The notes under the pieces: model-generated
Told to the model about the DNA's origin: nothing
Database searches by the model: none
What the model saw: the letters and a program-made list of their open reading frames with translations, nothing else
Made by a program: the position numbers and the translations under genes
In this document: positions 54,222-54,363 of the stretch, in pieces
Position numbering within the stretch: position 1 is the first letter of the stretch
Layout of the letters: the number at the start of each line of letters is the position of its first letter
Assembly (NCBI RefSeq): GCF_003790525.1
Contig: NZ_CP033635.1
Length of the DNA: 64,000 nt
Direction: 5' to 3' (one strand)
Source of the DNA: Escherichia coli
GTDB taxonomy: Bacteria > Pseudomonadota > Gammaproteobacteria > Enterobacterales > Enterobacteriaceae

Positions 54222-54363
54222 AGATTAGAAATCCTTTTGAAAGCGCATTGTTATGAGTTTACGCATATGGATTCATCTGGCAAATAAAAACGCGGGAAAA
54301 GCACTGGTCAGCGTCGGGGGGGGGGGTATAATGACCATTCTGTTATTGCATAGAGTAGTTAAC

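Follow-up and report, generated by a model that had tools for sequence, protein, structure and literature searches.

A G11 tract in the spacer of the conserved yciY promoter of Escherichia coli as a probable fusion of two G5 runs

The clsA-yciY intergenic region

The window, i.e., the whole 64-kb stretch of Escherichia coli DNA analyzed here, contains the divergent genes clsA and yciY, separated by a 142-nt intergenic region in which their predicted promoters are arranged back-to-back (Table 1). The -35 elements of the two promoters are 21 bp apart, with A/T tracts between them, and a consensus scan of positions 54100-54700 recovers exactly two promoter-like sites, one per strand. The original prediction described a run of eleven G residues directly abutting a TATAAT hexamer upstream of yciY in this divergent region; direct reading of the sequence, which is agcgtcGGGGGGGGGGGTATAATgaccatt at 54310-54339, bears this out. 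The yciY ATG (54364) is 38 nt from the end of the G11 tract and 31 nt from the end of TATAAT, and the clsA start codon (54221, minus strand) lies 95-105 nt from the tract.

Table 1. Positions of genes, predicted promoter elements, and the G11 tract in the window
Feature	Coordinates	Strand	Description
clsA (cardiolipin synthase A)	52761..54221	-	divergent neighbor of yciY
Predicted clsA promoter, TTGCCA-N16-TAAACT	54256..54283	-	-35 at 54283-54278, -10 at 54261-54256; promoter scan
A/T-tract region, aataaaaacgcgggaaaagc	54284..54303	.	between the two divergent -35 elements
Predicted yciY promoter, TGGTCA-N16-TATAAT		+	sigma-70-type; 10/12 consensus matches
Alternative -35 register, CTGGTC	54304-54309	+	17-nt spacer; register ambiguous
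-35-like hexamer, TGGTCA	54305..54310	+	4/6 match to TTGACA (weak); 16-nt spacer
Promoter spacer, 16 nt	54311..54326	+	G11 is its promoter-proximal 11 nt
G11 tract	54316-54326	+	eleven consecutive G; TATAAT directly 3'
Central block position	54321	+	tri-allelic in E. coli: G in the window; T in K-12 and W; C in O157 and UTI89 (C also in E. albertii)
-10 hexamer, TATAAT	54327..54332	+	6/6 match
Expected yciY transcription start	54338..54341	+	predicted from geometry only, 6-9 nt past the -10 hexamer
yciY	54364..54537	+	57 aa, highly basic, YciY family; NCBIfam NF033701, E = 5e-32; RefSeq-annotated

G11 is the longest homopolymer of the window, the runners-up being one G8, one A8, and one T8. 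Chance alone would yield between 0.009 (first-order Markov) and 0.02 (iid) G or C runs of at least 11 nt per 64 kb, or ~0.7 per 5 Mb. In the K-12 genome, homopolymer runs number 216 at a length of 8 nt and 19 at 9 nt, and a single 10-nt run is the longest (10.1101/346874). G11 is unusual for E. coli, and the rarity originally claimed for runs of this length holds. The G8 (29882-29889), which is the second-longest G run, is located inside a 1,247-aa ORF (28169-31912, plus strand) that is probably the nitrate reductase alpha subunit, as judged from its size and the neighboring narI in related loci.

On its other side, yciY is followed convergently by kch. Between kch and yciI lies an island (~56200-61000) that is absent from K-12 and carries an Arm-domain integrase fragment, IS3-family transposase remnants, and tail-fibre-domain, DinI-like, and LTA-synthase-family genes. 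In strain TUM1586, the IS3 copy of the island is interrupted by a group II intron (ltrA). The LTA-synthase-family gene (58570-60363, minus strand) encodes 597 aa in the window and in XH992, and is annotated as 495 or 502 aa in the near-identical TUM1586, E22, XDL, CS5L, LS45, and CM2. These length differences suggest that the 5' end is variable or that the gene has a frameshift site; its interior includes an A8/T8 run (59546-59553). An Rfam scan of 54000-54800 finds no family, its sole match being a sub-threshold CRISPR-DR35 hit inside kch (54649-54684, minus strand). With 23.3 bits where the gathering score is 35 (E = 0.053), this hit is taken as chance.

YciY is extremely rich in Arg and Lys, and an ORF of 57-59 aa with high similarity to it is present in all 80 Enterobacteriaceae species compared below. 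A chromosomal yciY-Venus fusion in K-12 is expressed and translated, gave signal, and was used as a positive control (PMC4909307). The K-12 allele behind this signal is G5TG5, not G11. A longer 94-aa ORF (54253-54537, plus strand) begins at an upstream ATG and runs in frame with yciY through the G tract (GGGG) and the ATG of TATAATG. It is probably spurious and is rejected as coding, since the yciY ATG lies 29-33 nt from TATAAT depending on the species, and 44 nt from it in three of them, which means that the frame is not kept. The three species with the longer leader are Enterobacter spp. (L035, L038, and L057), in which the leader is 14 nt longer (44 vs 30 nt) and the added stretch resembles a local duplication of 'tagagaaa..gt'.

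Conservation of the yciY promoter

The clsA loci of 80 Enterobacteriaceae species, together with the window, provide 81 upstream sequences that are aligned ungapped and anchored on TATAAT. The hexamer is invariant in all 81, and the block AAAAGCGCTGGT..GC, with its CTGGT core, is in register with it in 81/81, such that the distance between the -35 and -10 elements never varies. The conserved positions further include AAAA at -30..-27, A-rich columns at -45..-39, and the G directly after the hexamer (75/81), which is followed in most genera by a G/C-rich discriminator. Spacer length is invariant, and spacer sequence is variable between genera in most columns. Because spacing is the same in 80 species, purifying selection appears to act on length, with changes being selected against and not exploited.

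On the basis of its match to consensus, its deep conservation, and the expression of yciY, TATAAT looks like a real -10 element of a sigma-70-type yciY promoter. The A/T-tract region between the divergent -35 elements is possibly an UP-like element common to both promoters. The clsA promoter consensus, ATTTGCCAGAT...GCGTAAACTC, is likewise conserved, in 71 of the 81 sequences; the literature search on this promoter returned a review that gives no promoter details. A sigma-54 promoter was considered for the CTGGT...GC block and rejected, since direct reading places GG and GC at the wrong spacing.

The position of the tract delimits what a change in its length could do. As originally stated, such a change would shift promoter spacing, because G11 fills 11 nt of the 16-nt spacer. 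Being upstream of both transcripts, the tract would exert any effect at the DNA level. It also lies upstream of the entire clsA promoter, so a slip should not change the spacing of the clsA hexamers. For yciY, a slip to a spacer of 15, 17, or 18 nt would presumably alter transcription.

The spacer is not entirely free in sequence, because GGG at 54322-54324 (-5..-3 relative to TATAAT) is kept in 66, 74, and 68 of 81 sequences, respectively. This conservation, and the recurrence of G-rich spacers next to the -10 hexamer in most genera, are what speak for a functional G-rich element, in which the block would be selected for G-richness and the pure G11 would be one acceptable form. Candidates for such an element are (i) a spacer element contacting RNA polymerase, (ii) a regulator site, and (iii) a non-B DNA structure tuning the clsA and yciY promoters. 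As an explanation of the whole block it is improbable: conservation is limited to the 3' GGG, the 5' half (54316-54321) differs freely from genus to genus, and E. coli itself is polymorphic at block positions 1, 6, and 9. The region yielded neither an Rfam family nor another motif, and no regulator site was identified. A canonical three-tetrad G-quadruplex is likewise rejected on direct reading, as the tract is a single run of 11 G and three more G3 runs are absent within loop distance (1-7 nt). A functional role is plausible for the conserved GGG beside the -10 hexamer and for that part only.

Alleles and length variants of the spacer block

The G11 tract is not a conserved feature of the locus and is best described as a single-SNP derivative of interrupted alleles, in which a G at 54321 fuses two G5 runs. 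In a 181-nt alignment spanning the region, MG1655 and the window differ by one base, the MG1655 block being GGGGGTGGGGG (G5TG5). SMS-3-5 is 100% identical to the window at the clsA-yciY region. The block is GGGGGCGGGGG (G5CG5) in O157:H7 and E. albertii, AGGGGCGGGGG (AG4CG5) in UTI89 and numerous human isolates, and GGGGGTGGAGG (G5TGGAGG) in strains 219, M217, and C288. Among other Escherichia, E. whittamii carries GGGACCGGGGG, and AGGACTGGGGG, GGGGGCGAGGG, and CGGGGCGAAGG also occur. The C-centered alleles (G5CG5 of O157 and E. albertii, AG4CG5 of UTI89) are present in every sampled strain of those lineages. As C is shared by E. albertii and several lineages of E. coli, the distribution suggests that C is the ancestral state at 54321, T is derived, and G is a rare further derivative.

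Polymorphism is concentrated in the block, which holds three of the four polymorphic columns of a 165-nt alignment spanning the whole 142-nt intergenic region and a few flanking coding bases. The one polymorphic column outside it, 54345, is an A/G SNP in the yciY 5' leader, with G in UTI89-like strains. Strain L005 (E. coli Rb-3) has a 6-bp tandem duplication, GTCAGC, in the yciY -35 region (equivalent to ~54306-54311), which shifts TGGTCA 6 bp farther from TATAAT. No second case was seen in the more than 5,400 records.

Of 5,423 complete E. coli records, 59 have an exact match to G11 with the flanks of the window and 2,375 have one to the K-12 allele. Pure tracts of any length amount to 72 (~1.3%), so that about 99% of E. 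coli carry an interrupted block. In these searches, megablast with 91-nt queries missed 571 genomes in which flank SNPs removed every 28-mer seed; blastn recovered them, and they carry AGGGGCGGGGG.

Comparison of tract length across these strains reveals four lengths among the 72 pure tracts, with G10 in 5, G11 in 59, G12 in 7, and G13 in 1 (sequence verified). Much of this range is found within sets of nearly identical haplotypes, often separated by 0-2 SNPs over 9.1 kb. In the SMS-3-5-like set, whose members are 0-4 SNPs apart over 9.1 kb, TUM1586, E22, LS45, and CS5L have G10, the window has G11, XDL, XH992, and CM2 have G12, and 23CRST013 has G13. In the ECC-1470-like set (1-2 SNPs apart over 9.1 kb), BEC1-S17-ESBL-07, ECC-1470, and PM22 have G10, G11, and G12, respectively. 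MSI001 and E2, 1 SNP apart over the same distance, both have G12, which is consistent with inheritance.

Counting ZH177 in addition to the twelve off-length assemblies named above, off-length tracts thus make up 13 of the 72 pure tracts, with more insertions (8) than deletions (5). The four possible +/-1 variants of the interrupted K-12 allele occur in 3 records against 2,375 exact ones (3/2,378). The difference corresponds to an odds ratio of 174 (Fisher p = 2e-18), a figure that mixes biological slippage with possible sequencing error. The LS45 assembly has frameshifts in cls, yciY, ompW, and yciE, and CS5L has one extra frameshift; the remaining off-length assemblies are locally clean. Part of the G10/G12 variation may therefore be homopolymer sequencing error. 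The pure tract is truly less stable than the interrupted one, and the slippage hotspot foreseen in the original prediction is supported by the G10, G12, and G13 tracts on near-identical haplotypes.

Origin of the pure tract and known parallels

Pure tracts are present on haplotype backgrounds that are 66-144 SNPs apart over 9.1 kb. At least three backgrounds can be distinguished: (i) the SMS-3-5-like group, which includes the window, (ii) a K-12-like group formed by MSI001 and E2, which are 9-10 SNPs from MG1655 over 6.3 kb, and (iii) a looser set of ECC-1470, E24377A, WAT, and S19-651, presumably all of phylogroup B1, which are 11-46 SNPs from one another. Differences between the window haplotype and each of the others begin within 267 bp on the left of the tract and 131 bp on its right. 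Divergence this close to the tract points to recurrent mutation or to recombination in very short patches (under 400 bp).

Recurrent mutation has a known route. In E. coli, whether mismatch repair is intact or deficient, bases beside mononucleotide runs are hotspots of substitution, and roughly half of the run-adjacent substitutions copy the run base (10.1101/346874). The two strongest run-associated hotspots are an A followed by a C run (A:T>C:G) and a G followed by a C run (G:C>C:G) (PMC13250602). Read on the minus strand, the block is C5-A-C5 in K-12 and C5-G-C5 in O157, which matches the AC3+/GC3+ context of these transient-misalignment hotspots. The recurrent origin of pure tracts is thus mechanistically expected, and the change predicted here, A or G to C, would yield precisely the pure C11/G11. 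The papers describe genome-wide laboratory spectra, whereas the route at this locus is reconstructed from natural alleles; in the literature searched, 54321 is not reported as a hotspot.

Taken together, G11 is quite probably the fusion of two G5 runs in the conserved spacer of the yciY promoter, and a rare mutational by-product rather than an evolved contingency switch. The proposed history would start from an old promoter that is constrained in its hexamers and spacing and mostly free in spacer sequence. The Escherichia spacer would have drifted to G5-N-G5, and a single substitution at 54321 (C or T to G) in the lineage of the window strain would have fused the two G5 runs into G11. Transient misalignment at the AC3+/GC3+ hotspot on the minus strand may cause pure tracts to recur. 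Once uninterrupted, the run would slip by +/-1-2 bases to -35/-10 spacings of 15, 17, or 18, presumably altering yciY transcription. The rarity and scatter of pure tracts fit a mutation-selection or mutation-decay balance.

A related and unlikely reading is that a contingency-type switch has been caught at birth, with a few G11 lineages varying heritably, and at appreciable frequency, among 15-, 16-, 17-, and 18-nt yciY spacers. If true, clonal heterogeneity in YciY level would arise at a promoter that elsewhere in the Enterobacteriaceae keeps a fixed spacing.

It is very unlikely that the locus is an evolved contingency locus, in which a pure G tract would be preserved as a means of switching yciY, and perhaps clsA, on and off by slipped-strand mispairing. 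G11 does share with SSR contingency loci an uninterrupted repeat in a promoter spacer, here a homopolymer between the -35 and -10 elements. Repeat number also differs between close isolates (G10-G13 at 0-4 SNPs, which may include sequencing error), and precedents exist in the poly-G spacer of porA and the bidirectional promoter of hifA/B (PMC3899988). However, the repeat is not kept uninterrupted across the species. It is pure in only ~1.3% of complete E. coli genomes (72/5,423), the interrupted tracts are ~140-fold more length-stable, and other Escherichia species carry GGGACCGGGGG and similar interrupted alleles. Purifying selection on length is indicated by a spacing that is the same in all 80 species, and YciY, a conserved small basic protein, offers no obvious surface-exposed or fluctuating-selection target. 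The phase-variation-like behavior originally suggested is therefore not supported as an evolved mechanism, given that ~99% of E. coli carry an interrupted, length-stable tract.

Finally, that G11 itself is a sequencing or assembly artifact concealing a shorter or interrupted tract is hardly credible and already largely refuted: several platforms are error-prone on long G runs and the assemblies behind some off-length variants have other frameshifts (LS45, CS5L), but identical G11 with identical flanks is found in 59 independent complete genomes (including SMS-3-5 and E24377A, presumably finished with Sanger-era methods, as well as ECC-1470 and WAT), the block has the same 11-nt length as in all other E. 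coli, and G11 is distinguished by a substitution alone, which is not the typical homopolymer error.

As a fusion of two G5 runs, the G11 tract is of value mainly as a clean natural example and not as new biology. One locus displays three steps, namely the drift of a spacer to adjacent G5 runs, their fusion at a presumed hotspot, and length variability far greater than that of the interrupted alleles, with a fused run that exceeds any homopolymer in K-12. Annotators and variant callers should expect indels at this site in some E. coli lineages, such as those with the SMS-3-5-like haplotype. The alleles G5TG5, G5CG5, and G10 to G13 constitute a ready-made series for examining the effects of spacer length on a native promoter, and the strict conservation of the yciY promoter and gene in the Enterobacteriaceae may aid work on the uncharacterized YciY.

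Among known promoters, those of the rrnB P1 type, which are under stringent control, share several features with the yciY promoter: the invariant 16-nt spacer, the perfect TATAAT, the G after the hexamer, the G/C-rich discriminator (in most genera), and the upstream A-tracts. The E. coli yciY discriminator, GACCATT, is in contrast not very G/C-rich, and the -35 element differs. By analogy, growth-rate or stringent control of the yciY promoter is a speculative idea.

The porA tract of Neisseria meningitidis is generally kept uninterrupted in the species, switches at high frequency, and belongs to an outer-membrane antigen gene. The pure tract of yciY, in contrast, is a rare SNP derivative (~1% of genomes) upstream of a gene for a conserved small basic protein. 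In both promoters, a G run fills the spacer between the -35 and -10 elements and +/-1 G changes the spacing; at porA, the G count of the tract correlates with transcript level (PMC3899988). In Haemophilus influenzae, TA repeats are located in the divergent region of hifA and hifB, where repeat number sets the spacing of the hexamers (PMC3899988). The yciY tract likewise lies within a divergent intergenic region, but the TA repeat overlaps both promoters, whereas G11 is confined to the yciY spacer and is upstream of the clsA promoter.

As a general principle, variant repeats stabilize microsatellites. Although the comparison made here is across public assemblies and mixes slippage with sequencing error, a single interrupting base in the yciY spacer cuts observed length variation ~140-fold (3/2,378 vs 13/72), much as it does in interrupted relative to pure microsatellites.
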